Under the pieces are notes generated by a model, which saw only the letters and a program-made list of their open reading frames with translations, made no database searches and was not told where the DNA came from. The position numbers and the translations under genes are program-made. A stretch of 64,000 nt of DNA from Candidatus Iainarchaeum sp. (GTDB taxonomy: Archaea > Micrarchaeota > Micrarchaeia > Anstonellales > Bilamarchaeaceae). Position 1 is the stretch's first letter; the number at the start of each line of letters is the position of its first letter. The DNA lies in assembly GCA_028714535.1 (NCBI GenBank), contig JAQTME010000001.1:1270-65269 (forward strand), given 5' to 3'. Shown in pieces: positions 27,566 to 61,353 of this stretch.

Positions 27566-27572
27566 AGAACCG

Positions 27573-28163
27573 CTACCCGCTCCTGTGTGGCACTGGCCTG
27601 ATGGAGAACGCGTCGTCCACCAGCCCGCAGATGCAGTGGATTATGAGTATGTGCATCTCCTGTATCGTGGGCGTGCTGTCCGAGGCGACCACGAGCGATT
27701 TGTCGCACATCGGCTTCAGCCTTCCGCCGCCCTTGCCGAGCAGCGCGACCGTCTGGATGCCGATTGCCCTGGCTGCCTTCGCGGCCTCCAGCAGGTTCTC
27801 TGAGTCGCCGCTGGTGCTCAGGAGCACGAGCACGTCGCCCCTTTTCCCGAGCGCCTCGACCTGGCGCGCGAACACGCGCCCGAAGCCGTAGTCGTTTGAA
27901 ATCGCAGTGAGCGCGGATGTATCAGTCGTGAGCGCGATGCCGGGCAGCGCCTTCCTCTCCTTGATGTACCTGCCGCTGAGCTCTGCTGCGAAATGCTGGG
28001 CGTCGGCGGCGCTGCCGCCGTTGCCGCAGATGAGGACCTTGCCGCCTGCCTTGAGGGAAGCCAGGATTGGCGATGCCAATGCCTCTATGTCTGCCGCCTT
28101 GAGGCCCTGGCAGACTTTCGCATGCTCCAACAGCAAATCGGACGGTTTCATCACTCCCATCAT
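27573..28163 (-). CDS. gmhA: phosphoheptose (sedoheptulose-7-phosphate) isomerase, SIS domain
   Basis: [17 protein letters not shown] motif. Confidence 0.85.
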
Positions 28164-28219
28164 ATCGGGGACGGTTTTTATTCTTTTTTATCCCTAATAG
28201 GATATCTTCTGGTGTGTTT

Positions 28220-29206: not shown

Positions 29207-29253
29207 CGGCTGACGGAGGCCGCCTTGCGGCCGAACGTCCTCGTGGTGGTTAT

Positions 29254-33743: not shown

Positions 33744-34507
33744 TAACCGCCATACTCCAGGCGCGCATGGGCTCCACAAGGCTCCCTGGAAAAAGCGCAA
33801 GGGAGATAGCCGGCAGGCCGATGCTGTGGCACGTCCTCCAGCAGCTGAAGAGGTCCATGATGGTGGAAACCATAGTGGTCGCCACGACAACCAACGCGGC
33901 GGATGACGAGATAGAGAAGCTGGCAAATGCCAGCGGGGTGAAATGCTTCAGGGGGAGCGAGGAGGACGTGCTTGGGCGCTACATAGGCGCGGTGCAGAAA
34001 TTCGGCGGCGACATAGTCGTCCGCGTGACAGCCGACTGCCCGCTGATGGACGCCGGGGTCATAGACAGGGTGATAGCCGATTTCAAGAAGGGGGGCGCTG
34101 ACTACGTGTCCAACGTGCATCCGCCGACATTCCCGGACGGGCTCGATGTCGAGGTGTTCTCGCGGGACGCGCTCATGCGCGCCGGGCTCGAGGCGAAACT
34201 GGGGTCAGAGCGCGAGCATGTCACACCGTACATCTGGAAAAACACTGGATTGTTCAGGCAGAGGAACGTGGCCAACGGCAAGGACCTTTCAGCGCTGAGA
34301 TGGACCGTGGACACGCCGGAAGGCCTGGAATTCGTTGAGTCTGCTTACCGCGCCCTGGGCAAAAAAGGCTCGGCGCACAGCTTCGGCATGCAGGACGTGC
34401 TTGAGGTGCTGGCCAAAAACCCGAAAATCGCTGAAATAAACAAGAAATCAGGCAGAAATGAAGGCTATGCCAAGTCGCTGAAGGAAGACAAGGAGGAAGG
34501 AGCATGA
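33740..34507 (+). CDS. pseF: acylneuraminate cytidylyltransferase-family CMP-nonulosonate synthetase (PseF/NeuA-like)
   Basis: MITAILQARMGSTRLPGK N-terminal motif. It overlaps the upstream stop (ATGA). Confidence 0.75.
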   Translation: MITAILQARMGSTRLPGKSAREIAGRPMLWHVLQQLKRSMMVETIVVATTTNAADDEIEKLANASGVKCFRGSEEDVLGRYIGAVQKFGGDIVVRVTADCPLMDAGVIDRVIADFKKGGADYVSNVHPPTFPDGLDVEVFSRDALMRAGLEAKLGSEREHVTPYIWKNTGLFRQRNVANGKDLSALRWTVDTPEGLEFVESAYRALGKKGSAHSFGMQDVLEVLAKNPKIAEINKKSGRNEGYAKSLKEDKEEGA

Positions 34508-43771: not shown

Positions 43772-44815
43772 GTGATACCGGGGATTGCCAGGAGCATCGT
43801 GATAGGCATGAACATTTTCGACAGGTTGGGGGAAACGCGGGCGAACATAGCATTTGCAAGAGAATACACGCTGGAGCTGCAAGAGCAGGGCAGACGCCTC
43901 ATGAAGACGGGTAAGACAATAAGCCGGATTTGCGAGGTTTGCGGCTCGCCGCAACAAGAAGATAGGTTCATGGCCCCGGTATATGATTTTGTTGCATGCA
44001 GAAACTGCGGTTTCGTGTATGCGAAGAGCATACTTGGCGAGGAGGCCATGGATAAATTTTACAGGCATGATGAGGTAGCACAGCGTTCATGGAGCAAACA
44101 GCTTGAGAGGCTTGAGGCCAATCCGAATACGACCCAGTATCCCGGGCTCGTCACGAGGATAATGAAGAATGTCCGGGGCAGGGAAAGGGCGCTGGATTTC
44201 GGCTGTGGCCAGGGGGAGTTTTTGTACGAACTCAAAGGGCACTTTCGGAAGGTCATTGGCGTGGAACTCGGCAAGGAGCAAGCCGAAACCGCCAGGAGAA
44301 AATTCGGGGTGGAAGTGCTCGAGGGCGATATAGGCAGCCTTGGACTGCAAAAGGAGTCGTTTGACCTGATATGCATGAACCAGGTGATTGAGCACCTGCC
44401 GCGTGTGAATGATGTGCTGAAGAAACTTGTGCAGCTCCTCAAGCCAGAGGGAGTCCTGGCAATCACTTGCCCGAACCTCGATTCCTGGAGCATGCGGATA
44501 TTCAGGGAAAAACACTCGCACGTCAATACACAGGTTCACGTCAATATGTTCAGCCCAAAAACCATCGAAAAGCTTGCGCTAAGGCACGGCCTGAAAAAAA
44601 GGCAGGTTGGAACGTATATGCTCGATACGACGCTAATCGACCTTGCTTATCTCATATTCGCGAAAAAGAGCTTCATGCACCGGTGCAATTTCAACATTCT
44701 CCTCTATCCGCCTTCATGGCTGCTGGAGAAGGCAGTGAATAAGGCGAACGAGATTTCCAATAACGTCCTCATGGGCAGCTCAGGCTCGTATATAGAAGCG
44801 ATTTTCATGAAATGA
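43772..44815 (+). CDS. SAM-dependent methyltransferase with an N-terminal zinc-ribbon
   Basis: CEVCGS...CRNCGF zinc ribbon followed by methyltransferase motif I LDFGCGQG. The start is uncertain; Met residues lie at about 43772, 43808 and 43903. Confidence 0.65.
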   Translation: MIPGIARSIVIGMNIFDRLGETRANIAFAREYTLELQEQGRRLMKTGKTISRICEVCGSPQQEDRFMAPVYDFVACRNCGFVYAKSILGEEAMDKFYRHDEVAQRSWSKQLERLEANPNTTQYPGLVTRIMKNVRGRERALDFGCGQGEFLYELKGHFRKVIGVELGKEQAETARRKFGVEVLEGDIGSLGLQKESFDLICMNQVIEHLPRVNDVLKKLVQLLKPEGVLAITCPNLDSWSMRIFREKHSHVNTQVHVNMFSPKTIEKLALRHGLKKRQVGTYMLDTTLIDLAYLIFAKKSFMHRCNFNILLYPPSWLLEKAVNKANEISNNVLMGSSGSYIEAIFMK

Positions 44816-45036: not shown

Positions 45037-48000
45037 TTATGTATTTTGATAATAGAGTTTGTAGTTGAACGCGCTGATGGAACTGATCCAGCTACTCCGG
45101 TCCGTTCTATAAACATTGGTTCCGTCACGTTGCCAATAGACGCCAACATTGTTTCCTGAAGGCTCGTTGGTATTCAACACAATCCAATAAGTTCCTGCAT
45201 TCAGAGAGAAAGGCGTGAAGTTGAAATCAGCATATGCAACTGAATCGGGAACTGATGAGGTCGTTATGTTGGCGTACGCACTCTCGTTCACAAGAGTTCC
45301 TGAAGGAGCGCCGCTTGCATCTGTTTCTATTCTCAGGTTGAGGTTGCCTGAAGGCGAACCTACTTTCTGGAGGGCCAGTTGAACTCGTGTTATGTTGTTT
45401 GTTCCACTGGTCGTTATCTGAGTGGCCCGTTCAGCCAGAGCACCTTCAGACCAACGCCCGATTATTGCGTCAAGTATTGTTCCTGTAGTATAGCTCAGGC
45501 CAATATAATCAGTGGAGGCAGTGTAGTTCACTTCCGGCCCGAGGGCTACTGATTGTGTCTGATTGAGCGCATGGCCGCATTTGAGCTGCCCTAACGCAAG
45601 TTTATCCACCCCTTTGCCGTATTCTCCTACTGAAAAGCCGAAAGCAGTAATGTTTGCGAGAGAGTAGGACTGGTTGGCACCTCGTTCCGTGCCATTAACC
45701 AGCAGGAGTTCCGTGCGGTTGTTTATGTAGATTGCCTGGACTATCGTCAGATTTCCCTGCGCCATAGTCACGCCGGTATAAGGGTGATAAGAACCGCCAG
45801 TGTTTATGCTCCAACTCATTGCTCCGGTAGTGTATTGATTCTGCCCGTCGAGCATATTGTAGAAACCAAGTGGATAGTTGCCGCAGATGCCATTGGTGAC
45901 GTTTCCTATTCCATAACTCGCTCCGCAGAACTGGGCATAGTATGGATTGGACATCGGTATTATCGCCGCCTCGCATTCCCAGGTGGTCTTGTTGTTCGAA
46001 GGGAGCGCATAGCCGAGGTCTGCGGAAGTTGGGTAAGTGCTGGAGGTTGTATCGTTCAGGTAGAATAGGGTGTCTCCAAGGAAGGAGTATGGATACGTAT
46101 TCGTCATCACTCCAGCTTGCTGATTTGCAAAAGCGCCGTTAATTCCATTCGAACTGTTCTGATAGACTTCATATACCTGTGTCGGATCGGATACGTAGGG
46201 AGCGCCCGGATTTCGGTAGCAAAGTCTTGCCTGGAGTGCGCCATCAGTCATGTTTGCACAGATAAGGGAGGAGTTGTTGTCCGCAAGCGGATAGAGGTCG
46301 GTAAGGTTGGCATGGCAGTATTGAACGAAGCTCGGGTAGGCCGAGGAGTTGTCTGATTTGACTATGCGAAGGTCAGTACAATTGAGGTTGTGATGGACGG
46401 ACGAATTGGCGATGGCACAAAGAGCGTATGACGCATTGCCTAGGTTTGTGGCGCCAGTTGTATTTAAATCTCTGCAACTCAGCCAATTTTCACCCAACCA
46501 CAAAGATGAGTTGGGGTTATATTGAAGGATACCGAAGTTGCTGAACGAGGCGAGATTTGAAAGCGAGAGAGTATTTCCTACCGTATCGGGCGTGCTGTTC
46601 AAATCGGTCCAAGTTCCATTGTATTTGAAAAGGCGGAATTGGGATTCGTTATAACTGGATAAATCGCTGTCAACCCAGTTAAAAGACACATGGTCTATAG
46701 AGGGAGAACCGGTGGTGGTTGAGACATAGATGAAATTCTGGTTGAATGAAGTAGACCCAGAGGGTAAAGCTGAGGCATTGGCTGCCCAGTTTATTGAATA
46801 CGATTCGCTTGTTGCACTATCATTTACCGAAAGGTTGGTGAAATTCTGGTAGTTGCCCGCGGGATTGTCAAAAATGATAGCGGAAAGGTTGATGGTTATT
46901 GGGGAAGCATTGGCATTTATCTGGAAGTCGGCGGTGTTATTGTAGTAGTGGTCACTAATAAAGTAGTTATTGCCATCGCCAATCAAAACCCCTGCTTTGT
47001 GATTATTGTATAACGTATTGCCGATGAGAATATTGCCAGAGCTAGGCCCGACTTCATAGCTATTACTGGTAACAAAATAGATTCCATCGAGATTATCGTA
47101 TAGGGTGTTATTTTGGATAGTACTATTGAAAACAGAATCGAGCCAGATGCTTCCATTATCCCAATGATAACCGGGGTTGGCAGTATTGTTGTAGGCAATA
47201 TTGTCAATGATACTGATGTTGTAATTGTTGTAGAAATAAAACCCCCACCAGCAGTTGAAGACGGTGTTATTTATGAACGAGTTGTTATACCCCTGATTGG
47301 AGTTTATACCAACGGTGTGGACGCACTCGGTACCACTAGCATAGTTGGGGCAGGTGGTATTAGGCTTGGAGTTATTCGTGTCATAAATCACACAATTTTT
47401 GATTGTAACATTACTAAATAGACTGCCGCGATGAAATTGAATGCCCCACGCATCAATGTCATTATAGCTAGGGGGTGTCGAAACACCGCTGAGACTTATA
47501 TTGTGGCCATTACAATCAAGCACAAGATTGGAGGAGTTAATCAGAAAACAGGCAAATCCCCAATCCGTTGCCGGTGCTCCAATGTCCCATAATGGCGCTC
47601 CTGTGACATTGCCCAGAAGCATTGCATTTCCATTCACATATCCGCATCCGTAATAAGGAATCGAACGATTGGTCTCATTGGTAACTAAGTAACCGATACC
47701 AGAAATGTTTGCATAGCCTTTGATTGAATAAGTATGATTGAGGACAGTCAGGCTATCTGGGATCGAATAGTTGCATGATAGATTGTCCGGGGCAAGTGAA
47801 CACGAATAGTTCACACCGTCTACCTCGATTTGACTGCCAATGCTCAGGGCTACGCTCGCACCCATGTTGATGTTTATTGGGAAGGTGAAGTAGTTGGTAT
47901 CGTTGAGGGGGGTTGGGGAAATGAAATAAACGTTTGGGGAAGATATGACCGTGAACGTCACCAGCGACGAATTTTGGTAAGTTCCATTCCAGCAGGTTGC

Positions 48001-49272
48001 ATTGAGGACGTATACATCAGGGGAGAAGGTCGTATTAGAAAAGGAAAAGAGGGTGTTGTTAGTTACATCTTGATTCGCAAGTATAAGTCCGGCTCCGGTC
48101 GAAACGTTCAGGAAGTAACTGAGGTTGTCACCACTACAAGTCACGTTTATGTCTAGGGGGGTTATTGCGTAGGTAGAATTGGTTGGACTTGAAGTGTAAA
48201 CATTTAGGGTACCAGCTACGTCAGGGATTGTATAGTTCACCTCAACTCCGAGCGTCACGTTGAAGCTCTGATTGAGTGTATTGAAGCACTTGACCTGTCC
48301 AACTGCCATTCTGTCCACATTTGTTCCAGACGAACCAGCGCTGAACCCCACTGCGGTTATGTTGGCGGGGGAGTATGCAGTGATGTTGTATCCAACTTCA
48401 GAACCATTTATCAGCTCGTTGTGGGTGCGATTGAGCATAAAGGTGGTCTGAACAATTGTAAGGTTGCCGATGTAGAATTTCGGGTTGAGTCTTGAGTATG
48501 TAACGTACGAACCGCCCGGGTTGTAGAGCCAGCTCATAACTCCTTTTCCAATTTGGTTTTGCCCATCAAGGAAACCAAAAAAGCCCACGGGGTAGTTGCC
48601 GCACACACCGTTGGTGACATTTCCAGTAGCGTAGCTAGCTCCACAGAATTGGAAGTAGTAGGGCTGGGTGATTGGAATGACCGCGACCTCGCATCCTATC
48701 GTACTCTTGTTGTCGGTGTTCAGCTTCCAGCCGAGCGATGCTTGTGAAGCACCGGTGTCATTCAGATAGAACAATTTCGCGCCAAGGAAGGAGTATTGTG
48801 GGTATGCGTTCGTCATGGTACCGCTCATGAAATTTGCAAAGGCACCCTGGGTGGTCCCATCTGCTGCGTCCTTGTAGATCATGAACACTGTGCCATTATC
48901 TGATACGTTTGCTGCGTCAAGGTTGCGGTAGCACAGTCTTGCCTGGAGCGCACCGTCGGTCATGTTCGCGCAAATGAGGGACGAGTTGCTGTCCGCTAGT
49001 GGATAAAGGTTGGTTAGATTGGCATGGCAGTATTGGACGAAGCTCGGGTAGGCCGAGGAATTGTCCGATTTTATGATACGGAGGTCTGAGCAGTTGAGAT
49101 TGTACTGGACGGACGAGTTGATGATGGCACACAGAGTGTAGGGTGCATTGCCACTATTTGATGCTCCAGACGTGTTCAAGTCACGACAGGAAGTCCAGCT
49201 GGGGCCATACCAGTCTGCAGAAGCAAAAGTCATCATAAAAAGGATGATAATGAGACCGAGTTTGTTTCGCAT
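45037..49272 (-). CDS. giant secreted surface protein (1411 aa from the signal-peptide Met): two copies of a ~330-aa Cys-containing domain, a central right-handed parallel beta-helix (PbH1-like) region, and very many N-x-S/T sequons
   Basis: Signal peptide MRNKLGLIIILFMMTFASA. Beta-helix repeats such as NNTLYDNLDGIYF and GNTLYNNHKAGVLIG. More than 100 N-x-S/T sequons. GC content is about 40-45% against about 60% for the rest of the window, with AAT/TAT/ATT-type codons. Confidence 0.8.
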   Translation of the reverse strand: MRNKLGLIIILFMMTFASADWYGPSWTSCRDLNTSGASNSGNAPYTLCAIINSSVQYNLNCSDLRIIKSDNSSAYPSFVQYCHANLTNLYPLADSNSSLICANMTDGALQARLCYRNLDAANVSDNGTVFMIYKDAADGTTQGAFANFMSGTMTNAYPQYSFLGAKLFYLNDTGASQASLGWKLNTDNKSTIGCEVAVIPITQPYYFQFCGASYATGNVTNGVCGNYPVGFFGFLDGQNQIGKGVMSWLYNPGGSYVTYSRLNPKFYIGNLTIVQTTFMLNRTHNELINGSEVGYNITAYSPANITAVGFSAGSSGTNVDRMAVGQVKCFNTLNQSFNVTLGVEVNYTIPDVAGTLNVYTSSPTNSTYAITPLDINVTCSGDNLSYFLNVSTGAGLILANQDVTNNTLFSFSNTTFSPDVYVLNATCWNGTYQNSSLVTFTVISSPNVYFISPTPLNDTNYFTFPININMGASVALSIGSQIEVDGVNYSCSLAPDNLSCNYSIPDSLTVLNHTYSIKGYANISGIGYLVTNETNRSIPYYGCGYVNGNAMLLGNVTGAPLWDIGAPATDWGFACFLINSSNLVLDCNGHNISLSGVSTPPSYNDIDAWGIQFHRGSLFSNVTIKNCVIYDTNNSKPNTTCPNYASGTECVHTVGINSNQGYNNSFINNTVFNCWWGFYFYNNYNISIIDNIAYNNTANPGYHWDNGSIWLDSVFNSTIQNNTLYDNLDGIYFVTSNSYEVGPSSGNILIGNTLYNNHKAGVLIGDGNNYFISDHYYNNTADFQINANASPITINLSAIIFDNPAGNYQNFTNLSVNDSATSESYSINWAANASALPSGSTSFNQNFIYVSTTTGSPSIDHVSFNWVDSDLSSYNESQFRLFKYNGTWTDLNSTPDTVGNTLSLSNLASFSNFGILQYNPNSSLWLGENWLSCRDLNTTGATNLGNASYALCAIANSSVHHNLNCTDLRIVKSDNSSAYPSFVQYCHANLTDLYPLADNNSSLICANMTDGALQARLCYRNPGAPYVSDPTQVYEVYQNSSNGINGAFANQQAGVMTNTYPYSFLGDTLFYLNDTTSSTYPTSADLGYALPSNNKTTWECEAAIIPMSNPYYAQFCGASYGIGNVTNGICGNYPLGFYNMLDGQNQYTTGAMSWSINTGGSYHPYTGVTMAQGNLTIVQAIYINNRTELLLVNGTERGANQSYSLANITAFGFSVGEYGKGVDKLALGQLKCGHALNQTQSVALGPEVNYTASTDYIGLSYTTGTILDAIIGRWSEGALAERATQITTSGTNNITRVQLALQKVGSPSGNLNLRIETDASGAPSGTLVNESAYANITTSSVPDSVAYADFNFTPFSLNAGTYWIVLNTNEPSGNNVGVYWQRDGTNVYRTDRSSWISSISAFNYKLYYQNT
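45520..46503 (-). repeat. intragenic tandem duplication, copy 2 (aa ~933-1260 of the giant protein)
   Basis: SCRDLNTTGATN...ICANMTDGALQARLCYRN...EVNYT is repeated near the N-terminus. Nucleotide stretches of 100-150 nt are roughly 85-90% identical between copies (for example 46340-46440 against 49040-49150). Confidence 0.75.
48229..49212 (-). repeat. intragenic tandem duplication, copy 1 (aa ~30-357)
   Basis: See copy 2. The two copies are direct repeats separated by about 2.7 kb. Confidence 0.75.
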
Positions 49273-49300
49273 TGCCCGCACCTCCGAACAAAACCACATG

Positions 49301-49411: not shown

Positions 49412-51259
49412 ATGATAGTGATGCTCGCGTATTTTCTTGTTGTGATGCTCGCCATGGGATTCGCAGCCTGGCGGCTTCTCGGCGCTCAAGAGGATGACGA
49501 CTGCACGAAGGCATTCATCTGGCTGGCGACAGGCATCGTGCTTTTTGTGATGGCGACCGCCGTTCTCGGATTCATCGGTCAGGCGAACTGGGCCGCATAC
49601 CTCGTTATCGCCGCTGCGCTTCTTGGCGCCGCATACTGGAAAGACAGCAAGGCCGGCATCAGATACAATCTAAGGCTGCCTGTGCTGGGCCTGGAATGGA
49701 AGCTGGTCTGCCTCATCTTTCTTGTCCATCTCTATGTGTACGCGAGCGGTGCGTTCTCCTACCCATGGCTCGAGGACGACGACCCGTGGGAGCATGCCGC
49801 GGCAGCGCATTACGTGTCGCTGTACGGCAGCTACATCCAGCCCACTGGCCTGCCCCTCCACTACCTCGTGCCATACACGCCATTCTACGACGTGCTCCTG
49901 GGAGTGCTTTTCCAGCTCGACAATTCATCGATGCAGGCTGTGCTGAAATTCTTCAATGCCCTGCTGGTCAGCCTCGCCATACCGTTGTTCTTCTGCTGGG
50001 CGAAGGAAAGGCTCGGCGGCCGCACGGCCCTCTGGGCCACGTTCGCGCTCGCTGTGCTGCCCTGCTTCATGAGCCATTTCATATGGTCGCAGACGCTCGC
50101 GCTCATGCTCGTGTTCCCTGCATTATATTTCATCGAGAAGTTCTCCAAGGCTGATGCCCACAAGAAGGCTTTCGGGGTTCTAGCGGCCTTTGCGGTCGCA
50201 TCCGTATTCATGACGCAACCCTCCACCGGAGCCATGTTCGGCGGCCTGGCGGTTGTCTACATAGCCGCGCTCGCGCTACCGGACATCATTACATCGCGCA
50301 CGCTCATTCTCTCTAAGCTGAAGCCGCCCGCAATCGCGCTCGGCGCAGGCCTCCTCATCTCAATCGTGCTTTTCTGGGGCCCGGTTTTCGCCATGTATCC
50401 TGTCGAGCAGGTGTTCGCGCAGAACAGCCTGAGCGCAAAATTGCTCACAGACGTCCAGGGGGATACGGGCGGCGGGCTTGTTTACAGCATAAGCGACTTC
50501 ATCGACGCACCGTCCTCATCAAAGATGGACCAGCCGATAGGCTTCGGCCCGGCGATGGCCCTGTTGATGATTATCGGTGTGATTGCGGCCATATACGCGC
50601 TGCGTTCCCAGGAAAACAGGGATTCCGCAGCCGTCATGCTGCTGTGGCTTGCCTACGGCCTCATCGGCACAGAAGGCAACCTGCTGCCTGTGAAGCTCGT
50701 GCCCCACCGCTTCTGGGTTTTCCTTGCCATACCGGTCGCGATCCTGGCCGGATACGGCGCAGTCAAGGCGCTGGAGTACATAGAGAAGAACCGCAAGGGC
50801 ATGGAACTGATAGCCAAGGCGCTTATAGTGGCTGCGCTGCTGTTCACGTCAGCGTATCCGAAGGGCGTGGTGGAGACGTCCCAATGGCCGCCGGGCGCCA
50901 AGTGGGTTTCAGATGCGCAGATTTCAGGCTACGTCGGCCTCAAGGGCCTGCCGGCGAACACGCCGGTATTCGGCTTCTGTTTCGGCGAGGAGTTCGCAGA
51001 CGGCATGGACAAGGCGGGCTACGCCTGGATAAAGGAAGTGCGCGATTACAAAACGCGCTCCATCACCGACAGCATGGACGGCAACTACGCATTCCTGAAA
51101 AAATACGGCTACCAATACGCTGTGATCGACCAGAGCTGCCTGAATGCATTCACCGCAGACCAGATAAACGCCAAGCTCAACGGATTGGGCGGCGACGGCA
51201 GATTCACTGTGGCGGAGCAATATTCGAACCAGGCGTTCATCACGCTCAAGGTGAATTAG
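49412..51259 (+). CDS. GT-C-fold polytopic membrane glycosyltransferase-like protein (not a canonical AglB/STT3)
   Basis: About 13 TM helices plus a C-terminal soluble domain of about 150 aa. An acidic first-loop motif YPWLEDDDPWEH resembles the GT-C catalytic loop. No WWDYG motif is present. Confidence 0.55.
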   Translation: MIVMLAYFLVVMLAMGFAAWRLLGAQEDDDCTKAFIWLATGIVLFVMATAVLGFIGQANWAAYLVIAAALLGAAYWKDSKAGIRYNLRLPVLGLEWKLVCLIFLVHLYVYASGAFSYPWLEDDDPWEHAAAAHYVSLYGSYIQPTGLPLHYLVPYTPFYDVLLGVLFQLDNSSMQAVLKFFNALLVSLAIPLFFCWAKERLGGRTALWATFALAVLPCFMSHFIWSQTLALMLVFPALYFIEKFSKADAHKKAFGVLAAFAVASVFMTQPSTGAMFGGLAVVYIAALALPDIITSRTLILSKLKPPAIALGAGLLISIVLFWGPVFAMYPVEQVFAQNSLSAKLLTDVQGDTGGGLVYSISDFIDAPSSSKMDQPIGFGPAMALLMIIGVIAAIYALRSQENRDSAAVMLLWLAYGLIGTEGNLLPVKLVPHRFWVFLAIPVAILAGYGAVKALEYIEKNRKGMELIAKALIVAALLFTSAYPKGVVETSQWPPGAKWVSDAQISGYVGLKGLPANTPVFGFCFGEEFADGMDKAGYAWIKEVRDYKTRSITDSMDGNYAFLKKYGYQYAVIDQSCLNAFTADQINAKLNGLGGDGRFTVAEQYSNQAFITLKVN

Positions 51260-52202
51260 TTTCGATGAGGTAGCGTATCGTCCTTCTGACGCCGTCTTCT
51301 ATGCTGACCTTCGGCTTCCAGCCGAGCGCCTCCATGCGCTTCGTGGAAAGCAGGACGACCGGCTGGTCCCCGACCCATCCGCCTGCGCCGCCCGTATGAC
51401 GGTATTCTACGTCATTAAGACGCATCTCCTGCACTATCATGTCAGCGACAGTGTCCACGCCGATGGTGTAGCCCTGCCCGAGATTGTAGATTGAAGTGGC
51501 ACCTGCTTTCGCTGCCCTGGCCCCTGCCATCATCCCCGCCACGCAGTCCTTGACATAAAGGTAGGACTTCTTCTGCTTCCCGTCGCCGAGGATTTCCAGC
51601 CGCCGGGGATTTTTTTTCAGCTTGCGGTAGAAGTCTATCACAACGCCGTGCGGATAGCGCTCGCCGACTATGGAGACGAACCTGTAGATGGAATTCGCTA
51701 TGCCGTAATACTCTGAATAGGCCTCGATGAGCGCCTCCCCTGCGAGTTTGGACGCGCCGTAGAGCGAGTTCTGTATCATCGGCGCATCCTCTGGCACAGG
51801 GAAAGCCTTCTGGATGCCATAGACGGCCCCTGACGAGCTGAATGCGATGCCCTTTATGTCGTTGAGCCGCATCGCCTCGAGCACGTTGTGCGTCGCGATG
51901 GTATTCTGCTCCAGGTCTATTGAGGTATTTGCCATTCCGCCGCGGATGTCTGCATTGGCGGCCAGGTGGAATATGAACTCGGCGCCTGCGCATGCCTTGA
52001 TGAGTGCGTCCTTCTTCAGCAGGTCGAGCTTCTGGAACGAGTAGTTCTTTGCCTTTTTGTGCGCTTCGACAATTTTTGGCTGGCCTGTGCGCATGCTGTC
52101 CAGGACGAGCACGTTCGCGCCCTGCAACAGGAGCTCGTCGACCACATGGGAGCCTATGAATCCTGCGCCACCAGTGACAACAACGCTCTTTCCGGAGAAC
52201 AT
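51246..52202 (-). CDS. NAD-dependent epimerase/dehydratase
   Basis: VVVTGGAGFIGSH and the YGASK catalytic motif. Confidence 0.8.
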   Translation of the reverse strand: MFSGKSVVVTGGAGFIGSHVVDELLLQGANVLVLDSMRTGQPKIVEAHKKAKNYSFQKLDLLKKDALIKACAGAEFIFHLAANADIRGGMANTSIDLEQNTIATHNVLEAMRLNDIKGIAFSSSGAVYGIQKAFPVPEDAPMIQNSLYGASKLAGEALIEAYSEYYGIANSIYRFVSIVGERYPHGVVIDFYRKLKKNPRRLEILGDGKQKKSYLYVKDCVAGMMAGARAAKAGATSIYNLGQGYTIGVDTVADMIVQEMRLNDVEYRHTGGAGGWVGDQPVVLLSTKRMEALGWKPKVSIEDGVRRTIRYLIETNSP

Positions 52203-53185
52203 CAGCGCACCGCCCTGTCGTTGAAGACGATGCGCGAGCCCTCGCTCGGGAAGCCGAACTTCACCTCGCGCATTGGGGCGAGCGCCTTGCGCACCGCGGC
52301 CTGCTTCTCCTCTTCGCAGTAGAACATGAAGAACCCGCCGCCGCCTGCGCCAAGGACCTTGCCGCCGGTTGCGCCCGCCTCCTTAGCCGCCGAGTAGTAG
52401 TTGTCTATGAGCTCTGTGCTGACGCCGGAAGCGAACGTGCGCTTCATCTGCCAGGACTCGTCGAGCATCTCGCCGAACGAGCTGAGGTCCCCTTTCTCCA
52501 GCTTGGACTTCGCCTGCTCTGCCATGGAACGGAGGCGGTTGAGGTATTCGGTCTTGTCGCCTATCTTCTCCTTCTGCTCCTTGAGCACCCTCCCTGAGCT
52601 CCTGCTCACGCCGGTGTGGAAGAACAATAGTTTTTTCCTGAAGGCTGCCAGCGTGCTCGGCTTTATCTTAACCGGCTCAACTGAAACCGTGTCGTCCTTG
52701 TTGAAGCGTATGAGGTTGAAGCCGCCGAAGGCCGCGATGTACTGGTCCTGCTTGCCTATGGGCTCGCTGAGCACGCCTATCTCTATCCTGCAGGCCGCCT
52801 TGGCCAGTTTGTCAGCATCAGCAGGCTCGCCGCGGAATGCGTAGAGCGCGTTTAATACGCCGACAAGGAAGCTGCTGGAAGAGCCGAGGCCGGTGCCGTG
52901 GGAAGGGAAATCGGCGAGGGCGCTGAGCTCTATGGCATGGTCCACGCCGGTGAAGCGCAGGGCCTCGCGCAGCGTGGGATGGAGTATCTGGTCCACAGAC
53001 TCGACTATCTCGGTGAGCCGGTAGTTGAGCTGGATGGCATTGTCGAACTTGGGGTTGGCCATTATGTAGACGTACTTGTCTATGGCCGCGCTGAGGACGC
53101 AACCGTGGTCCAGCTCGTAATATTTCCTGAAGTCGGTCCCCCCTCCGAAGAAGGATATGCGGAACGGCGTCCTTGATGTAAGCAT
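52202..53185 (-). CDS. hddA: GHMP-family sugar kinase, D-glycero-alpha-D-manno-heptose 7-phosphate kinase-like (HddA)
   Basis: GHMP motif PSHGTGLGSSSSF. It sits with gmhA, hddC and gmhB. Confidence 0.7.
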   Translation of the reverse strand: MLTSRTPFRISFFGGGTDFRKYYELDHGCVLSAAIDKYVYIMANPKFDNAIQLNYRLTEIVESVDQILHPTLREALRFTGVDHAIELSALADFPSHGTGLGSSSSFLVGVLNALYAFRGEPADADKLAKAACRIEIGVLSEPIGKQDQYIAAFGGFNLIRFNKDDTVSVEPVKIKPSTLAAFRKKLLFFHTGVSRSSGRVLKEQKEKIGDKTEYLNRLRSMAEQAKSKLEKGDLSSFGEMLDESWQMKRTFASGVSTELIDNYYSAAKEAGATGGKVLGAGGGGFFMFYCEEEKQAAVRKALAPMREVKFGFPSEGSRIVFNDRAVR

Positions 53186-53189
53186 GGCA

Positions 53190-53762
53190 TCAGGCCTCTC
53201 CCATTTGTTTTCTCACAATGTGTATCTTGAGCAGGTGGCCGATGACGAAATGCACGTCCTCGGCAATCTCCACGTTGTCTGTCTTGGCTATTATGCAGTG
53301 TTTCGCGGTGCTGGCGAGCTTTCCGCCCTTGAAAGCGGCCAGGCCGGCTGTGTGCGCCCCTGCGCCGTTAGCATATTCGATGGCGCGCAGGACGTTGGGT
53401 GAATTCCCGCTGGTGCTTATGCCGATTGCCAGGTCGCCCGGCCTCAGCAGGTTCTCCAGCTGCTCCTTGAATATCATGTCGTATGACGTGTCGTTGCCCC
53501 AGGCCGTCATCAGCGGCACGTTCTCGTTGAGGCAGATGATCCTGAGGCGCTTCTTGCCAGGGACTATCGTGCCCTTTGACAGGTCGGCTGCGAAATGGAC
53601 CGCGTTAGTGGCGCTGTCGCCGTTGCCGAAAACATATATCGTGCCGCCGCGCGCGTTCGTTTCAAGCAGGAGATTTGCGAGGGACGCCACGTCCTCCTCG
53701 TCTATGGCGTCTAGGCATTGTTTCAGCATTTTCACGTAGGAATTCAAATCAGGCACGTTCAT
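53190..53762 (-). CDS. gmhA: phosphoheptose isomerase, second paralog
   Basis: SIS motif VFGNGDSATNAVHFAADL. Confidence 0.85.
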   Translation of the reverse strand: MNVPDLNSYVKMLKQCLDAIDEEDVASLANLLLETNARGGTIYVFGNGDSATNAVHFAADLSKGTIVPGKKRLRIICLNENVPLMTAWGNDTSYDMIFKEQLENLLRPGDLAIGISTSGNSPNVLRAIEYANGAGAHTAGLAAFKGGKLASTAKHCIIAKTDNVEIAEDVHFVIGHLLKIHIVRKQMGEA

Positions 53763-54457
53763 GCTATCCCCCCGCCGAGCGATTTTTTCAGGCGCTCTGG
53801 CGTGCCGATGTCAAGTATGTTCTCCCGGGTCATGTAAGCGTAAAGCTTCCCGCCTTTCCTGAGGATCCCGGGCAGGGCGTCCTTGTCCAGCATAGATTTA
53901 CCATCAGGAAAATACTTTAAGATTGCCTTCTCGAAGCAGTAGACCCCCGCATTGGATATGTTGTCGAATTTGTCGCCTGGCTTCGGCTTCCCCAGGAACC
54001 TGACGACCTCCCAATCCGGCGTGACCTCTAGTATGTCTGAGTCGTAGGGATGGTCGCTCTCATGCACAGTGAGCGTGCCCAGCCCGCCCTTTGCGGTGTG
54101 GAACCCGACCAGCTTGCGGAGGTCCATGCCGCCGAGCAGGTCGCCATACATCATGACGAACCTGTCGCTGAGCAGGGGCGCTGCCTTTTTCAGTGCGCCG
54201 CCTGTGCCGAGAAGCTCCGTCTCTATGGAATATTCGATGTGCACGCCGAGCCCGCTGCCGTCGCCGAAATGCGCCTGCACCAGCTCCGCCAGGTGGCCTG
54301 CGCAGATGACGATGTCCTTCATGCCATAGCGCGCCAGCCAGAGTATCTGATGCTCCAGCACGGGTTTTCCGTTCACCATGACAAGGCCTTTCGGCAGGGC
54401 TTTTGTCAGCTTGCCGAGCCTGGTGCCAAGGCCGCCTGCGACTATGACGCCCTTCAT
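53759..54457 (-). CDS. hddC: heptose 1-phosphate guanylyltransferase-like nucleotidyltransferase (HddC)
   Basis: KGVIVAGGLGTRLGKLT and 232 aa. It overlaps the flanking genes by 4 nt. Confidence 0.7.
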   Translation of the reverse strand: MKGVIVAGGLGTRLGKLTKALPKGLVMVNGKPVLEHQILWLARYGMKDIVICAGHLAELVQAHFGDGSGLGVHIEYSIETELLGTGGALKKAAPLLSDRFVMMYGDLLGGMDLRKLVGFHTAKGGLGTLTVHESDHPYDSDILEVTPDWEVVRFLGKPKPGDKFDNISNAGVYCFEKAILKYFPDGKSMLDKDALPGILRKGGKLYAYMTRENILDIGTPERLKKSLGGGIA

Positions 54458-55023
54458 ATCCTGCCCACCACCAGCTTCGCTGCTTCGTAGAGGCTGCCGC
54501 AGGTGTGGTCAGGGGCTGCCTCGTACCTTCCGTCCTTTCCGCCGTATCCTGTCCTGACGAGGATCGTAGTGCAGCCGAAGCTTTTTCCGGCGGCCACGTC
54601 CCTTGTGCTGTCGCCTATCATGAAGCACCGTTCCGGCGGCACGTTGAACTTTTTCGACGCCTCCTCCAGCATGCCTGTCTTCGGCTTCCTGCAGTAGCAG
54701 TCCACGCGGTATTTGGGGTCGCCTTCGGGGTGCTGCTCGGGATGGTGCGGGCAGTAGTAGATGGCATCCACGTGCGCGCCTTCCCTGGCCAGGAGCTCCT
54801 CCAGCTTCCTGTTGATCTGTTGGACGTCCTCCTCTGTGCACAGGCCGCGCGCCACAACCGGCTGGTTGGTGACCACCGCCACCTTGACGCCATGCGAGTT
54901 GAGCAGCTTTATGCCTTTGGCAGCACCTGGGATGAGGGCAAGCCTGCTTTCGTGGTGGAGAAGGTCTACCTCCTCGTTTATGGTGCCGTCTCTGTCAACC
55001 AGCGCCAGAAAACCAGGTTTCAT
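54454..55023 (-). CDS. gmhB: D,D-heptose 1,7-bisphosphate phosphatase (HAD IIIA)
   Basis: ALVDRDGTIN HAD motif I followed by VVTNQ. Confidence 0.8.
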   Translation of the reverse strand: MKPGFLALVDRDGTINEEVDLLHHESRLALIPGAAKGIKLLNSHGVKVAVVTNQPVVARGLCTEEDVQQINRKLEELLAREGAHVDAIYYCPHHPEQHPEGDPKYRVDCYCRKPKTGMLEEASKKFNVPPERCFMIGDSTRDVAAGKSFGCTTILVRTGYGGKDGRYEAAPDHTCGSLYEAAKLVVGRI

Positions 55024-55066
55024 ACGTGTATAATCTGTCTTGCGCGGCTTAAAAACAGTGCGGAAA

Positions 55067-55729
55067 CTAAGGCCTGAACCGTTCCTTGAGCAGGAATATG
55101 CAGTCCTTCACGCCGTCCATGAGCTGGACCTTTGATGTGCCGCCCCTGCGCGCGTAATCGATGGGCACCTCGGTCATCCTGAGCCCCTTCTTCACGGACT
55201 GGGCGAAGAGGTTGCACTCAAGCTCGAATGTGTGCGCCGTGACATCTATGGCCTTGTAGGCGTTTTTCCTGAACGCCCACATGCCCGTGCACACGTCGCT
55301 GACCGGCTTCAGGTAAAGCACGGTCGCCACCAGGGAGATCATCTGGTTGCCAAAGCCGTTTATGGGAGGCATCGCGCCCTCCTCGAAATGGCCCTTGAAG
55401 CGCGAACCGAGCACGACGTCGTAATCCTTGAGCAGGGAGAGGAATTTCTGTATGTCCTTGACCGGGTAGGTCAGGTCTGCGTCAATCATGACGGCATAAT
55501 CAGAGTCTATCTCCCTGAAGGCTGCCTTTATGGCGAACGCCTTGCCCTTCCTTTTCTCAAGCAGGATGCGCGCACCGAGCGATTTGGCGATCTCCACGGT
55601 CCTGTCAGTGCTCAGGCCGTCTATGACGACTATTTCCGCCTGTGGCACGGCTGCCCGGACCTCCGTTATGGTCCTGCCGATGCTCTCAGCCTCGTTGAGC
55701 GTGGGGAGTAGTATGGAAACAGAAGGCAT
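55067..55729 (-). CDS. dolichol-phosphate hexosyltransferase-like GT2 (Dpm1-like)
   Basis: VSILLPTLNEAESI...VIDGLSTD...IDADLTYP DxD region. It is short and soluble, like Dpm1. Confidence 0.75.
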   Translation of the reverse strand: MPSVSILLPTLNEAESIGRTITEVRAAVPQAEIVVIDGLSTDRTVEIAKSLGARILLEKRKGKAFAIKAAFREIDSDYAVMIDADLTYPVKDIQKFLSLLKDYDVVLGSRFKGHFEEGAMPPINGFGNQMISLVATVLYLKPVSDVCTGMWAFRKNAYKAIDVTAHTFELECNLFAQSVKKGLRMTEVPIDYARRGGTSKVQLMDGVKDCIFLLKERFRP

Positions 55730-55775
55730 AGGAAGACAGTTGGGCGGAAAACATTATTAATGAAGTGCCCGGGGC

Positions 55776-56780
55776 CTAGCTTTCCATCCCTGATATGCGT
55801 TTCAGGACGCTCTCCAGGCTGTGCTTATGGAGGTAGGCGGCTATCACCGGCACGGAGAATGAATCCACAACAATCATGCTGACGCGGGTAAGGAAGCCGA
55901 ACGCAACGCTGGACTCGAAAGGCACGCCGAAGGGCAGCAGCACGGCGGCAAAGGCCGCTTCGCTTGCGCCGGCTCCGGCCAGTGTCGGGGTGGGAACGAA
56001 TTGTATTATGGTTATGGCGGCCTGGAACACCATCATGAAAAGCAGGTCGGTGGTGATGGCGCCGGTGACGGATATGCCAAGGGCGTAGGAGATGCACAGC
56101 CATTCCACGGCTTTCAGGAACCAGGTGACCGTCGTGATCCCCATGACTCCCCATTTCAGTGTCAGTATCTTGCCTGAATGCGCGTGCATGCGCCGCAGGA
56201 AGGAGAATATGGTCGGGGCGAGAGGCAGTCTCTCTGCGAATGAGAAATGCTTCAGGAACGGCGGGTGGAAAACCAGCAGGCCTGCGAACAGAACTGCGGC
56301 AAGGGCGGCACAGACAACCACTGCGTTAATCGCCATGCCTCCAGCTCCCACCTTGGATATTATCAGGAGGGTAAGCACGATGGCTGAAAGGGCCTTTATC
56401 AGGAAATCGAAAAGCTGCGGGCCGAATATGGCTGTAAGCGTCTTGTCCGTGCTTATGCCGAATTTGGAGGAAAGCGAGAATGCGGTGAAGAAATAGCCTG
56501 CCCGCGCTGGCGTGAAGTCAGAGGCCAGGAGCCCGGCCAGGTTGGATGGGGCGACCTGCATGACGCTGAGGCGCTCCCCCATGCCGGCAAGGACGAAGTT
56601 TATCCTGTAGGCCATCACGAACGTGACTGCGGCGTATGCGATGAGCGCCAGCGCAAGAAGCTCCGGCCTGGCGCCGAGCAGCGTGCCGTATATCCGGCCA
56701 GCCCCGACCAGACAGAACACCGCCACGAAAATGGCGAGCGATATCAGGAGGTTGAGCAGGAGCTGCATGCGTTTGTCCAA
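55776..56780 (-). CDS. UPF0104 / lysylphosphatidylglycerol-synthase-TM-region-like polytopic membrane protein
   Basis: About 8 TM helices. This family is frequently found with GT2 polyprenol-phosphate glycosyltransferases. Confidence 0.55.
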   Translation of the reverse strand: MDKRMQLLLNLLISLAIFVAVFCLVGAGRIYGTLLGARPELLALALIAYAAVTFVMAYRINFVLAGMGERLSVMQVAPSNLAGLLASDFTPARAGYFFTAFSLSSKFGISTDKTLTAIFGPQLFDFLIKALSAIVLTLLIISKVGAGGMAINAVVVCAALAAVLFAGLLVFHPPFLKHFSFAERLPLAPTIFSFLRRMHAHSGKILTLKWGVMGITTVTWFLKAVEWLCISYALGISVTGAITTDLLFMMVFQAAITIIQFVPTPTLAGAGASEAAFAAVLLPFGVPFESSVAFGFLTRVSMIVVDSFSVPVIAAYLHKHSLESVLKRISGMES

Positions 56781-60069: not shown

Positions 60070-61353
60070 CTATTTCAGCAGCCAAAGGTTCACGAATGAA
60101 AGGAGGAAGAGCAGCGCGAGAAGCCCCAGGACCAGTTCCATGGACGCCATATAGTCCTGCTGGAAGGCAGCGCTCGGCCTGGACGGCACCGATGATGCGG
60201 GTTCGCCGGTCTCTGCTGTAGCCCCGTTGTAGGAAAGCGCCCGGCTCAATATGACCTCGTCGTGGCGTTCGTCGTCCAGCGCGGGGCCCTTGACGGCTAT
60301 TGAGAGCACGTTCTGGCCCAGCCCTTCATAGCCGTAACTGAACTCGTACGTGTAGGCGAACGAGTAGTTCCGGCTTTCCAGTTGCGTCGGCGTGGCGAGG
60401 CCGATGCGCTCGGACCAGCCATCAGGGCTTGCCGGGTATGAGATTATCTCCTGGATACCGTAGGGGCCTGTGCGCGTGTCGAACGTGCGCAATGTGAGGT
60501 TGCGTGTGCGGTTGCCATTGAGGTATATGTCGGCATGGTAGAGCGGGCCCTGGGAGAGGATGATGGTGTCGAAGCGGTTGTCGCGGAACCACTGCTCGCG
60601 CAGCACTGGCGCGCGCAGGAAGTAGAGCTTGTTGGCGCCGAAGACGGTGAAGTCTCGGCTCGTGGAAAACGAGACGTTCTTGGTGAAATAGTGGTAGTTG
60701 TCGGCGCAGCCGGCGTCCTCGCGGTCGTTGATGTAATAGATGAAACGCATCGTGCCCACGATGCTTGCGTTCAGCAGGTCAGCGCCCGATGAGGTTTTCA
60801 TCTGGGCCAGTATTCCAGGCGGCGTGCTCATACTCAGCGGCAGGATGCTGGAAGTGAACGGCGTGGAATATGTGGCATTCTTGAATGTGAATGCCACGGT
60901 GCCTGTATAGAGCACCTGGGCCAGGAGCTCGTATTCCACGCAGCCGTCCTGGTCGAAATCGCAGCGCTGGGCGCGCGTTGTATCAAGGGAGCCGTCAGGG
61001 TAGAGCGACGAGTAGTTGCAGATGAATTCCGGGCTGCCTGGACTCGCCCACATGTGCCCCTGGCGGGCCCCTTTGGCCACGAGCAGGGAGAGGCCGCTGG
61101 CCGGATACGTCGCATTGTCCAGCATGAGCGACATACCAGCCACGTTCACGCTGGCGTCTACGGGCAGCGGAAGCAAACGGCCATTATTGAACTGAATTTG
61201 GACAGTGGAATGGAGCGCCGTGGCGTCGTCATATCGGTTGTCCAGGAACTGGCCGAGCGCCCCATTGTAATCCATCACGCTTTCGACAGGCGGTTCATAG
61301 AGCTGCGCGGCTGCGAGGCCGATGAGAAGGGCCAGAAGAAGCATCTGCCTCAT
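60070..61353 (-). CDS. secreted protein with signal peptide, C-terminal TM anchor and many sequons
   Basis: N-terminal MRQMLLLALLIGLAAAQ and C-terminal MELVLGLLALLFLLSFVNLWLLK, with about 14 N-x-S/T sites. Confidence 0.55.
   Translation of the reverse strand: MRQMLLLALLIGLAAAQLYEPPVESVMDYNGALGQFLDNRYDDATALHSTVQIQFNNGRLLPLPVDASVNVAGMSLMLDNATYPASGLSLLVAKGARQGHMWASPGSPEFICNYSSLYPDGSLDTTRAQRCDFDQDGCVEYELLAQVLYTGTVAFTFKNATYSTPFTSSILPLSMSTPPGILAQMKTSSGADLLNASIVGTMRFIYYINDREDAGCADNYHYFTKNVSFSTSRDFTVFGANKLYFLRAPVLREQWFRDNRFDTIILSQGPLYHADIYLNGNRTRNLTLRTFDTRTGPYGIQEIISYPASPDGWSERIGLATPTQLESRNYSFAYTYEFSYGYEGLGQNVLSIAVKGPALDDERHDEVILSRALSYNGATAETGEPASSVPSRPSAAFQQDYMASMELVLGLLALLFLLSFVNLWLLK

Follow-up and report, generated by a model that had tools for sequence, protein, structure and literature searches.

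Background

In bacteria, the ArnC/ArnE-ArnF/ArnT and GtrB/GtrA/Gtr(type) (GtrX) triads each bring together a polyprenol-phosphate glycosyltransferase of family GT2, a small flippase and an external glycosyltransferase of the GT-C fold. In the archaeon Haloferax volcanii, AglD, AglR and AglS are a dolichol-phosphate (Dol-P) mannose synthase, a flippase-associated protein and a Dol-P-mannose:glycan mannosyltransferase: the GT2 enzyme charges dolichol phosphate inside the cell, the lipid-linked sugar is moved out, and a multispanning enzyme extends the N-linked glycan, beside the oligosaccharyltransferase (OST) AglB (PMC3871713, PMC5867893). Here we describe a gene from Candidatus Iainarchaeum sp. 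(Micrarchaeota) whose product we compare with these systems. It lies at 49412-51259 on the plus strand of a stretch of 64,000 nucleotides (contig JAQTME010000001.1 of assembly GCA_028714535.1, positions 1,270 to 65,269), which is referred to below as the window.

DPANN archaea are tiny and mostly symbiotic, and their cell surfaces mediate attachment to hosts; to our knowledge, their glycosylation machinery is almost unstudied. Our analysis defines a GT-C family, so far without a name, that comprises about 440 clusters at 50 % identity, comes mainly from DPANN archaea and has a proposed role in adding sugars outside the cell. The reading that we favour, with moderate confidence, is that the protein under study is an extracytoplasmic GT-C enzyme of the GT-C_A type, that it forms the third part of a lipid-phosphate-sugar relay, and that it serves the general tailoring of surface glycans beside AglB. 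This corrects the tempting inference that the protein is the private partner of the giant protein encoded next to it, or a replacement for AglB.

Fold and membrane layout of the protein

The gene is an open reading frame (ORF) with an ATG start codon that is kept in its homologs, whose consensus in the family alignment begins MIxxI:

49412..51259, plus strand: GT-C glycosyltransferase gene, 615 residues, with 14 predicted transmembrane (TM) helices and a C-terminal external alpha/beta domain

NCBI holds an identical protein, PHV13_00280, as a hypothetical protein of a Candidatus Ainarchaeum metagenome-assembled genome (MAG; DPANN, Micrarchaeota). The family alignment (A1) comprises 70 sequences, with homologs down to about 30 % identity, and from it AlphaFold2 produced a model with a mean pLDDT of 94.3 and a pTM of 0.94. 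When this full-length model was compared with the PDB using Foldseek, the top 31 matches were all GT-C enzymes (probability 1.00, E 2.5e-11 to 2e-2). They are led by human and yeast STT3 (2.5e-11 to 1e-9) and include Archaeoglobus fulgidus AglB (1.3e-9), DPY19 of C. elegans (1.1e-8), AftA (1.7e-8), PglB (2.2e-8) and ArnT (5f15; 2.1e-6, TM-scores 0.48/0.54), together with AftD, ALG9, EmbB, ALG3 and, weakly (2e-2 over 295 aligned columns), PMT1/2. Transporters appeared only at noise level, with probabilities below 0.3, which rules out a transporter or other non-GT fold. The GT-C fold that a first-pass annotation had proposed from the sequence alone thus holds in the model, and we regard the predicted fold class as secure. 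The nearest subfamily is only weakly indicated by the model, because TM-scores are nearly equal (0.45-0.50) for OSTs, AftA and ArnT.

Sequence searches agree on the clan and say little beyond it. Whether queried with the target or with the profile of its family, PDB sequences gave nothing useful, and no match to ArnT; no curated Pfam or NCBIfam threshold is passed by the target. Its similarity to PMT_2 (PF13231) has an E-value of 0.0027 and 18.4 bits, under the gathering cutoff of 26.1. PMT_2 and DUF6541 (PF20176), both of the GT-C clan, are the only Pfam profile matches of the family that we name as relatives: at E<=0.01, PMT_2 is found in 12 of the 70 members (best 9.9e-9), PMT (PF02366) in three and DUF6541 in 17 (best 1.6e-12), while most members match neither PMT_2 nor DUF6541. 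The target itself has no match to DUF6541 at E<=0.1, and by these profiles the family is related to DUF6541 and not contained in it. The beta-trefoil MIR domain of true PMTs has no counterpart, as the model holds no beta-rich insertion and the C-terminal alpha/beta domain is its sole external domain.

A few profile matches point elsewhere. Pfam EpsG is found in four of the 70 members and Wzy_C in one, and one member is named 'EpsG family protein' at NCBI, as would suit a polymerase of the Wzy/EpsG type, a transporter or an enzyme resembling O-antigen ligases. However, the significant Foldseek matches include none of these three classes, and three features described below fit GT-C_A transferases, namely the acidic motif outside the membrane, the dome at the C-terminus and the genomic link to a synthase of monosaccharide-lipids; this explanation is already disfavoured and keeps next to no probability.

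The model contains 14 membrane helices, one more than the roughly 13 of the first-pass annotation, and places the N-terminus outside. Topology follows from the positive-inside rule: averaged over the family, the short loops carry 7.9 lysines and arginines on the inside and 1.2 on the outside. This puts the acidic loop (residues 115-173, after TM4), the loop of residues 329-379 and the C-terminal domain (489-615) outside the membrane, so that the acidic motif and the domain earlier called periplasmic-type, an alpha/beta domain of 127 residues, both fall where they had been expected. The acidic loop had been taken for the first extracytoplasmic loop; it is external, acidic and the first large external loop, although, following TM4, it is not the first external segment. 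The family as modelled therefore has an unusual layout of 14 helices with the N-terminus out and an OST-like C-terminal half without OST motifs. A weak NCBIfam match of the four N-terminal helices (residues 2-116; 49412-49759) is to the LIC_10190 family membrane protein (E 3.8e-6, well under cutoff). Counted from the acidic loop, three of these helices may be extra to the canonical 13-TM GT-C.

Modelled alone (pLDDT 87.8), the C-terminal domain best matches the C-terminal domain of AfAglB-S2 (3vu0; TM-score 0.61), then STT3 and DPY19 (0.58-0.61) and AftD; the E-values are weak (about 1e-2) and the ranking is consistent. A 'luminal dome' core is common to OSTs, DPY19, Emb and Aft enzymes (PMC10154233). 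Because this core spans many GT-Cs, we read the modelled match as a hallmark of GT-C_A and not as evidence for OST identity, and an assignment as OST from the resemblance to AglB-S2 was accordingly downgraded.

A compact family centred on DPANN archaea

Searched against 1.84 billion proteins clustered at 50 % identity, the family profile retrieved 437 cluster representatives at E<=1e-30 and 831 at E<=1e-3, which in sequence space marks a compact, sharply bounded family, unnamed and uncharacterised. Micrarchaeota, Aenigmatarchaeota, Woesearchaeota and Nanoarchaeota supply most of its members, one listed match is from Candidatus Margulisbacteria, and the database labels are inconsistent (Stt3, GT39, EpsG, DUF6541 or hypothetical). 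Many loci from 'binchicken' co-assembly MAGs (L016, L019, L020, L028, L033, L039, L043 and others) are titled 'uncultured Methanosarcinales archaeon', a label that looks doubtful.

Some genomes hold two paralogs, namely L005 and L007 in MAG CAZBAM01 and L051 and L052 in MAG JAGVXR01. In CAZBAM01, one paralog accompanies the heptose operon described below and the other (770 residues as called) lies beside AglB and a GT2 gene. Their contexts suggest that paralogs of the family may use different donor sugars.

Conservation on the outer face

Conserved positions were mapped in the 70 homologs and cluster in five segments of the protein:

49772..49783, plus strand: acidic motif E121-D122-D123-D124 in the loop equivalent to external loop 1 (EL1), candidate catalytic base or metal site (from conservation, hhalign and topology)
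50060..50086, plus strand: short external loop P217-x-F-M-S-H222-F-I-W225, with P217, H222, F223 and W225 invariant
50396..50548, plus strand: large external EL5-like loop, residues 329-379, with Y358, D362 and K371-M-D373-Q374-P-x-G377-x-G379 (from conservation and hhalign)
50693..50716, plus strand: K428-L-V-P431-H432-R433-F-W435 at the outer end of a TM helix, candidate phosphate-binding residues (from conservation)
50876..51256, plus strand: C-terminal external domain, residues 489-615, which opens with the invariant W492-P-P-G495 and has two cysteines conserved in at least 90 %

The acidic motif lies within residues 117-128 of the target, YPWLEDDDPWEH. D124 is invariant, E121, D122 and D123 are conserved in at least 94 % of the homologs, and W126 and H128 in at least 90 %. 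The loop of P217-W225 is free of lysine, arginine, aspartate and glutamate throughout the family, and D362 is conserved at 97 %. P431, R433 and W435 are invariant, K428 and H432 are conserved in at least 90 %, and K484 is likewise invariant or conserved in at least 90 %. All of these residues lie in predicted external loops or at outer helix ends. By analogy with the cationic phosphate-binding residues of other GT-Cs, the segment K428-W435 may bind phosphate (PMC10154233). The layout would then be that expected of a GT-C active site, in which an acidic base or metal site is joined by cationic residues that hold the lipid phosphate (PMC10154233).

Genomic context points to a lipid-linked donor

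The gene converges with a tightly packed operon on the minus strand (51246-56780), and the 3' ends of the GT-C gene and of the last operon gene, encoding an SDR protein, overlap by 14 bp. The operon contains the following genes:

51246..52202, minus strand: SDR epimerase/dehydratase, last gene of the convergent operon (Pfam Epimerase 9.5e-46; syntenic in L001-L005 and L081-L083)
52202..53185, minus strand: HddA-like heptose-7-phosphate kinase of the GHMP type (best NCBIfam match NF049969 HddA, 9.2e-45, under the curated cutoff)
53190..53762, minus strand: GmhA-like sedoheptulose-7-phosphate isomerase (TIGR00441 5.8e-30, under cutoff; SIS_2 domain)
53759..54457, minus strand: sugar-1-phosphate nucleotidyltransferase, an HddC- or ManC-like guanylyltransferase (NTP_transferase 1.1e-29)
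54454..55023, minus strand: GmhB-like heptose-1,7-bisphosphate phosphatase of the HAD-IIIA type (PRK08942 6.1e-47; passes TIGR01662 and TIGR01656)
55067..55729, minus strand: soluble GT2 of 220 residues without a TM segment, predicted Dol-P-sugar synthase, that is, the donor maker
55776..56780, minus strand: LPG_synthase_TM/flippase-like membrane protein, candidate Dol-P-sugar translocator (Pfam PF03706 2.8e-24; passes NCBIfam TIGR00374 'flippase-like domain')

The order GT-C, SDR, GHMP, SIS, NTP-transferase, HAD, GT2, LPG_synthase_TM is kept at identities from 87 % to about 50 %, in loci L001-L005 and on the P0007 and P0004 contigs. To assess linkage across the family we used 80 loci from GTDB species representatives, 78 of which have a callable family ORF, with one ORF caller and phmmer. 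Each locus spans up to 10 kb on either side of the family gene and less at contig ends, and all linkage counts are lower bounds. A small GT2 gene is adjacent to the family gene in 28 of the 78 loci, within three genes in 50 and anywhere in the locus in 59. Such genes make up 15.8 % of those within two positions of the family gene (45/285) vs 2.9 % of those at least five positions away (17/593). The GT2 of the window has as its best PDB match the Dol-P-mannose synthase of Pyrococcus furiosus (5mlz, 2.7e-15), followed by ArnC, and keeps the DAD and S-R motifs as these are defined elsewhere (PMC12992685). Its NCBIfam matches, all under cutoffs, are AglJ (5.4e-48), the haloarchaeal Dol-P hexose transferase (9.2e-37), PpgS and ArnC. 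In Woesearchaeota loci the corresponding GT2 has about 293 residues and matches ArnC nearly over its full length (4.9e-21) as well as DPMS and GtrB; in one of them (L025), a heptose operon situated some 4 kb from the GT-C gene includes a GT2 of 240 residues. The flippase-like protein is syntenic in eight of the 78 loci and in L081 and L082, and is absent from most Woesearchaeota loci; a PDB sequence search with it gave no match.

The first-pass annotation had raised dependence on a polyprenol-linked sugar as one possibility, and this gains support from context: a lipid-phosphate-sugar donor is indicated because a GT2 of the Dol-P-sugar-synthase type and the flippase-like protein are conserved neighbours. 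The same facts have been weighed for an enzyme of the ArnT or Emb kind, whose acceptor would be a lipid of the membrane, a glycolipid or a lipoglycan and not the glycan of a glycoprotein. In its favour, the significant structural matches include ArnT, AftA, AftD and Emb, the full-length ArnC similarity of the Woesearchaeota partners fits, and the three-gene logic is the same as that of ArnC/ArnEF/ArnT. We nevertheless find a lipid acceptor improbable: the window shows no sign of a pathway for lipid-A-like molecules or lipoglycans, and the surroundings are those of an archaeal agl-type protein-glycosylation island with a Wzx/MurJ-type flippase, AglB itself lying beside family members in six loci.

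The window has two separate routes to heptose nucleotides, both on the minus strand. One, of ADP-heptose type (25001-28163), consists of a GmhA that passes TIGR00441, a split HldE made of a kinase and an adenylyltransferase that passes TIGR02199, and, following these, a GT9 heptosyltransferase; the other, of GDP-heptose type (51246-55023), is formed by the HddA-, GmhA-, HddC- and GmhB-like genes with the SDR gene. Judged by these gene sets, heptose would enter glycans inside the cell through GT9 and probably outside it through the GT-C enzyme. The plus strand encodes in addition a nonulosonic-acid pathway of the pseudaminic/legionaminic type (28214-31457 and 33740-34507), with a PseB-like dehydratase, a DegT aminotransferase, a NeuB synthase and a CMP-sugar cytidylyltransferase. 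Candidatus Micrarchaeum harzensis is reportedly unable to make activated sugars (10.1101/2021.04.28.441871, preprint); its relative in the window, by contrast, encodes many activated-sugar pathways.

In loci of the Woesearchaeota/Nanoarchaeota type, a class-I S-adenosylmethionine-dependent methyltransferase of about 236-246 residues stands between the ArnC-like GT2 of about 293 residues and the GT-C gene, just upstream of the latter (L019, L020, L023, L025, L035, L051, L052, L072 and others). It adjoins the GT-C gene in 11 of the 78 loci and accounts for 16 of the 285 near genes vs 11 of the 593 far ones. A methyltransferase gene of the window (43772-44815, plus strand) would be the immediate co-directional upstream neighbour of the GT-C gene were the giant gene between them removed.

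Relatedness to AglB and the question of OST identity

That the protein lacks WWDYG and is not a canonical OST had been stated in the first-pass annotation, and both points are borne out well beyond the target. A WWDxG-like motif is absent from the target, from every family member (0/70) and from all frames of the window, while true AglBs of the same lineages carry WWDYG or WWDFG; neither Pfam STT3 (PF02516) nor the STT3-PglB core (PF21436) matches any of the 70 members at E<=0.01. Profile comparison of the family with six DPANN AglBs using hhalign does reveal relatedness, with a probability of 93.6 % and an E-value of 2e-7. In this alignment LEDDDPW pairs with 'LGDIDSYYW' in EL1 of AglB, and S-I-S-D362-F pairs with 'T-V-A-E-F' (TIXE), tentatively, as the helix count between the motifs differs. 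The DxD region of AglB, 'SDNDPQN', pairs with the non-acidic 'SQTLAL', four residues downstream of the invariant H222, and the C-terminal WWDYG region of AglB has no counterpart in the family.

Canonical AglB is present alongside the family. PHV13_00790 (1055 residues, SWWDYGHW) shares 66 % identity with the AglB of the Micrarchaeota locus L007. It is assigned to the MAG of the target by the shared PHV13_ locus-tag prefix, and the contigs listed for the two proteins have the same length, 148,033 bp; likewise, the contigs listed for the relative P0007 and the AglB P0254 are both 354,775 bp long. Within 10 kb of family members, canonical AglBs (991-1113 residues, WWDYG or WWDFG, Pfam STT3 2e-6 to 8e-50) occur in six loci. 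The evidence against OST identity is stronger than the relatedness to AglB: because the family has no WWDxG motif and no STT3 match, and because canonical AglB coexists with it, the family is an additional GT-C beside AglB and not its replacement. The idea of an OST substitute is ruled out by the WWDYG-bearing AglB of the same MAG and by the six loci in which AglB lies beside family members.

It is a different matter whether the enzyme acts on protein directly. It could be a WWDYG-independent protein glycosyltransferase for which dolichol phosphate carries the donor, a monosaccharide or an oligosaccharide, and an unfolded surface protein offers the acceptor residue, be it Asn, Ser/Thr or some other. 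This would be a second, non-canonical DPANN route of protein glycosylation analogous to DPY19 or PMT. The ranking of the full-length structural matches, with STT3 and AglB first and DPY19 next, agrees with this, as do the alignment of the EL1 Asp and of the TIXE-position acid, the fit of the C-terminal domain to those of AfAglB-S2 and DPY19, which form peptide grooves, the invariant W492-P-P-G495 just after the last TM helix, roughly where OSTs have WWDYG, and the setting, a glycosylation island in which a protein extremely rich in sequons is encoded next door. Other findings speak against it: the dome core also occurs in Emb and AftD, which do not act on protein (PMC10154233), and is thus unspecific; TM-scores are about equal for OST, AftA and ArnT; sequence profiles match PMT_2 and DUF6541 and never STT3; and no acidic residues pair with the DxD region of AglB. 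Since a canonical AglB is moreover encoded in the same genome, and no conserved linkage to any candidate substrate protein was seen in the 78 loci, we assign direct transfer to protein a small but real probability and continue to prefer a glycan-tailoring enzyme.

Several DPANN genomes unite AglB, small GT2s and the family GT-C in one neighbourhood. In L043 (12573-16488), L045 (12528-16261) and L059 (13068-16722), a GT2 of 220-224 residues of the Dol-P-sugar-synthase type adjoins canonical AglB, and the family GT-C is 0.7-1.4 kb away. DPANN AglBs are long, about 990-1113 residues (L007 4572-7913, L043 13252-16488, P0251); in those of the Woesearchaeota type, the first catalytic Asp motif comes as early as about 200 residues into the protein, and the precomputed annotation misses Pfam STT3 in several DPANN AglBs.

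The sequon-rich neighbour

Upstream of the GT-C gene and divergent from it, with 112 bp between the two start codons, lies the gene of the giant protein:

45037..49299, minus strand: secreted sequon-rich beta-helix protein of 1420 residues, divergent neighbour, with a signal-peptide-like N-terminus and no TM anchor

The divergent sequon-rich neighbour noticed in the first-pass annotation is thus real. It contains 84-85 N-X-S/T sequons, or 5.9 per 100 residues, where its own composition predicts 33 and other genes of the window have about 0.3 per 100. A signal-peptide-like start lies at M10 and a right-handed beta-helix at the centre; the protein also matches DUF2341 weakly, contains 32 cysteines and is internally duplicated (residues 27-357 vs 931-1260, 63 % identity). 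The G+C content of its gene is 47 % vs 58-60 % for the window.

From this arrangement the first-pass annotation had raised the idea of a dedicated modifier of the adjacent protein, which could be co-regulated with it from the shared 112-bp divergent promoter region. The short intergenic region and the excess of sequons over expectation (85 vs 33) are what recommend the idea, and comparative genomics has already largely refuted it. With sequon-rich defined as at least three sequons per 100 residues and at least 300 residues, such a protein is adjacent to the family gene in none of the 78 loci and present anywhere in only four, and no homolog of the giant was found in them. In the closest relatives the upstream divergent gene encodes an SDR (L001, 87 % identity) or a radical-SAM protein (P0004, 77 %; P0007, 68 %), with the downstream genes retained. 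A conserved pairing with giant sequon-rich proteins can thus be rejected, and a dedicated modifier is very improbable. The anomalous G+C content suggests a lineage-specific insertion, and the giant gene looks like one made into a variable slot of a glycosylation island; its absence from related loci suggests recent acquisition or rapid turnover. The giant protein is not a conserved partner of the GT-C enzyme, and it probably serves the cell's glycosylation systems at large as a substrate.

Two adjacent ORFs on the minus strand, 60070-61353 (427 residues) and 61350-63275 (641 residues), have no Pfam match, hydrophobic segments at the N-terminus and near the C-terminus, and a raised density of sequons (1.9 per 100 residues), which makes their products candidates for surface glycoproteins anchored in the membrane. 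At the matching position, the P0007 contig (L081) has ORFs of comparable size whose function is unassigned.

A proposed relay for surface-glycan tailoring

Taken together, these results can be arranged as a pathway of three steps. In the first, to judge from homology and operon structure, the convergent operon would make an NDP-heptose by means of its GmhA-, HddA- and GmhB-like enzymes, the guanylyltransferase and a tailoring SDR, and the GT2 of 220 residues would charge dolichol phosphate with the sugar on the cytoplasmic side of the membrane. In the second, the LPG_synthase_TM/flippase-like protein would carry the Dol-P-sugar to the outer leaflet. In the third, on the fold and topology described above, the GT-C enzyme would hold the lipid phosphate through K428, H432, R433 and K484, while the acidic residues E121-D124 on the outside, near H222 and D362, would activate an acceptor hydroxyl or bind a metal, and a single sugar would be moved onto an extracellular acceptor. 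By analogy with AglS of Haloferax, this is most likely a glycan that surface glycoproteins already carry. The donor in this lineage is probably lipid-phosphate-heptose, from its gene content D-glycero-D-manno-heptose, possibly tailored by the SDR, with other sugars used elsewhere in the family. In this pathway the enzyme acts beside canonical AglB as a general tailoring enzyme and is not dedicated to the giant protein.

Several observations weigh against this pathway or parts of it. No GT2 is found within the examined span in 19 of the 78 loci. Heptose genes occur in only seven of the 78 GTDB loci and on three extra contigs of close relatives, and for this reason heptose is not the family-wide donor. 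The names given to operon genes are mostly best matches under curated NCBIfam cutoffs, and the nucleotidyltransferase at 53759..54457 fits mannose-1-phosphate guanylyltransferase (2e-41) better than HddC (9.5e-25), both under cutoff. The closest structural and profile relatives, OSTs and DPY19, act on peptides, so that a direct protein acceptor is possible. Finally, the role proposed for the family is drawn from sequence, model and context.

We put forward more tentatively a narrower version, in which the conserved operon would make dolichol-phosphate-heptose and an OST-like GT-C of DPANN archaea would transfer the heptose outside the cell; in its boldest form the transfer would be directly onto surface proteins, independent of WWDYG and beside AglB. 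Our literature search found no description of any lipid-phosphate-heptose, of DUF6541 or of this GT-C family. If the donor is indeed lipid-phosphate-heptose, a new sugar would join the short list of polyprenol-monophosphate donors, and the route of heptose to archaeal surface glycans would be explained.

Comparison with described systems

By pathway logic, which is the sole basis of this comparison, the nearest described system is AglD/AglR/AglS: it too is archaeal, and the GT-C described here is linked to a GT2 of the same type and to a flippase-like protein. The two differ in the candidate flippase, which is LPG_synthase_TM/TIGR00374 here and Wzx-like in AglR, in the sugar, which is probably heptose rather than mannose, and in the host lineage, DPANN rather than haloarchaea. 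The ArnT (GT83) and Gtr systems present the same triad; ArnT is a structural match of the target (2.1e-6), and ArnC and GtrB are matched by the partner GT2s of the family. Those systems are bacterial, act on lipid A or O-antigen and use another flippase family, and ArnT has no detectable sequence similarity to the target.

In structure, the target is closest to STT3/AglB/PglB (GT66), which provide its best structural matches (2.5e-11 to 2e-8), and the hhalign comparison with DPANN AglBs aligns the EL1 Asp. In both, a long external loop is followed by four TM helices and a C-terminal alpha/beta domain, which in the target resembles that of the short A. fulgidus AglB. Unlike these enzymes, the target has no WWDYG and no DK/MI-type motif, its DxD region is not conserved, its 14 helices start from an external N-terminus with the acidic loop after TM4, and its family is linked to a monosaccharide-lipid synthase. 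DPY19, a tryptophan C-mannosyltransferase, is a GT-C that combines an OST-like variable module and luminal dome with the use of a Dol-P-monosaccharide (PMC10154233). It matches the target over the full length (1.1e-8) and in the C-terminal domain (TM-score 0.58-0.61); it is eukaryotic, however, and the target has neither sequence-level similarity to it nor a Dpy19 Pfam match. PMT_2 and DUF6541 are large families, and the profile of the present one stays separate from them, retrieving only 831 proteins at E<=1e-3. On this comparison, the family appears to be a GT-C of familiar logic, possibly with a new donor sugar.

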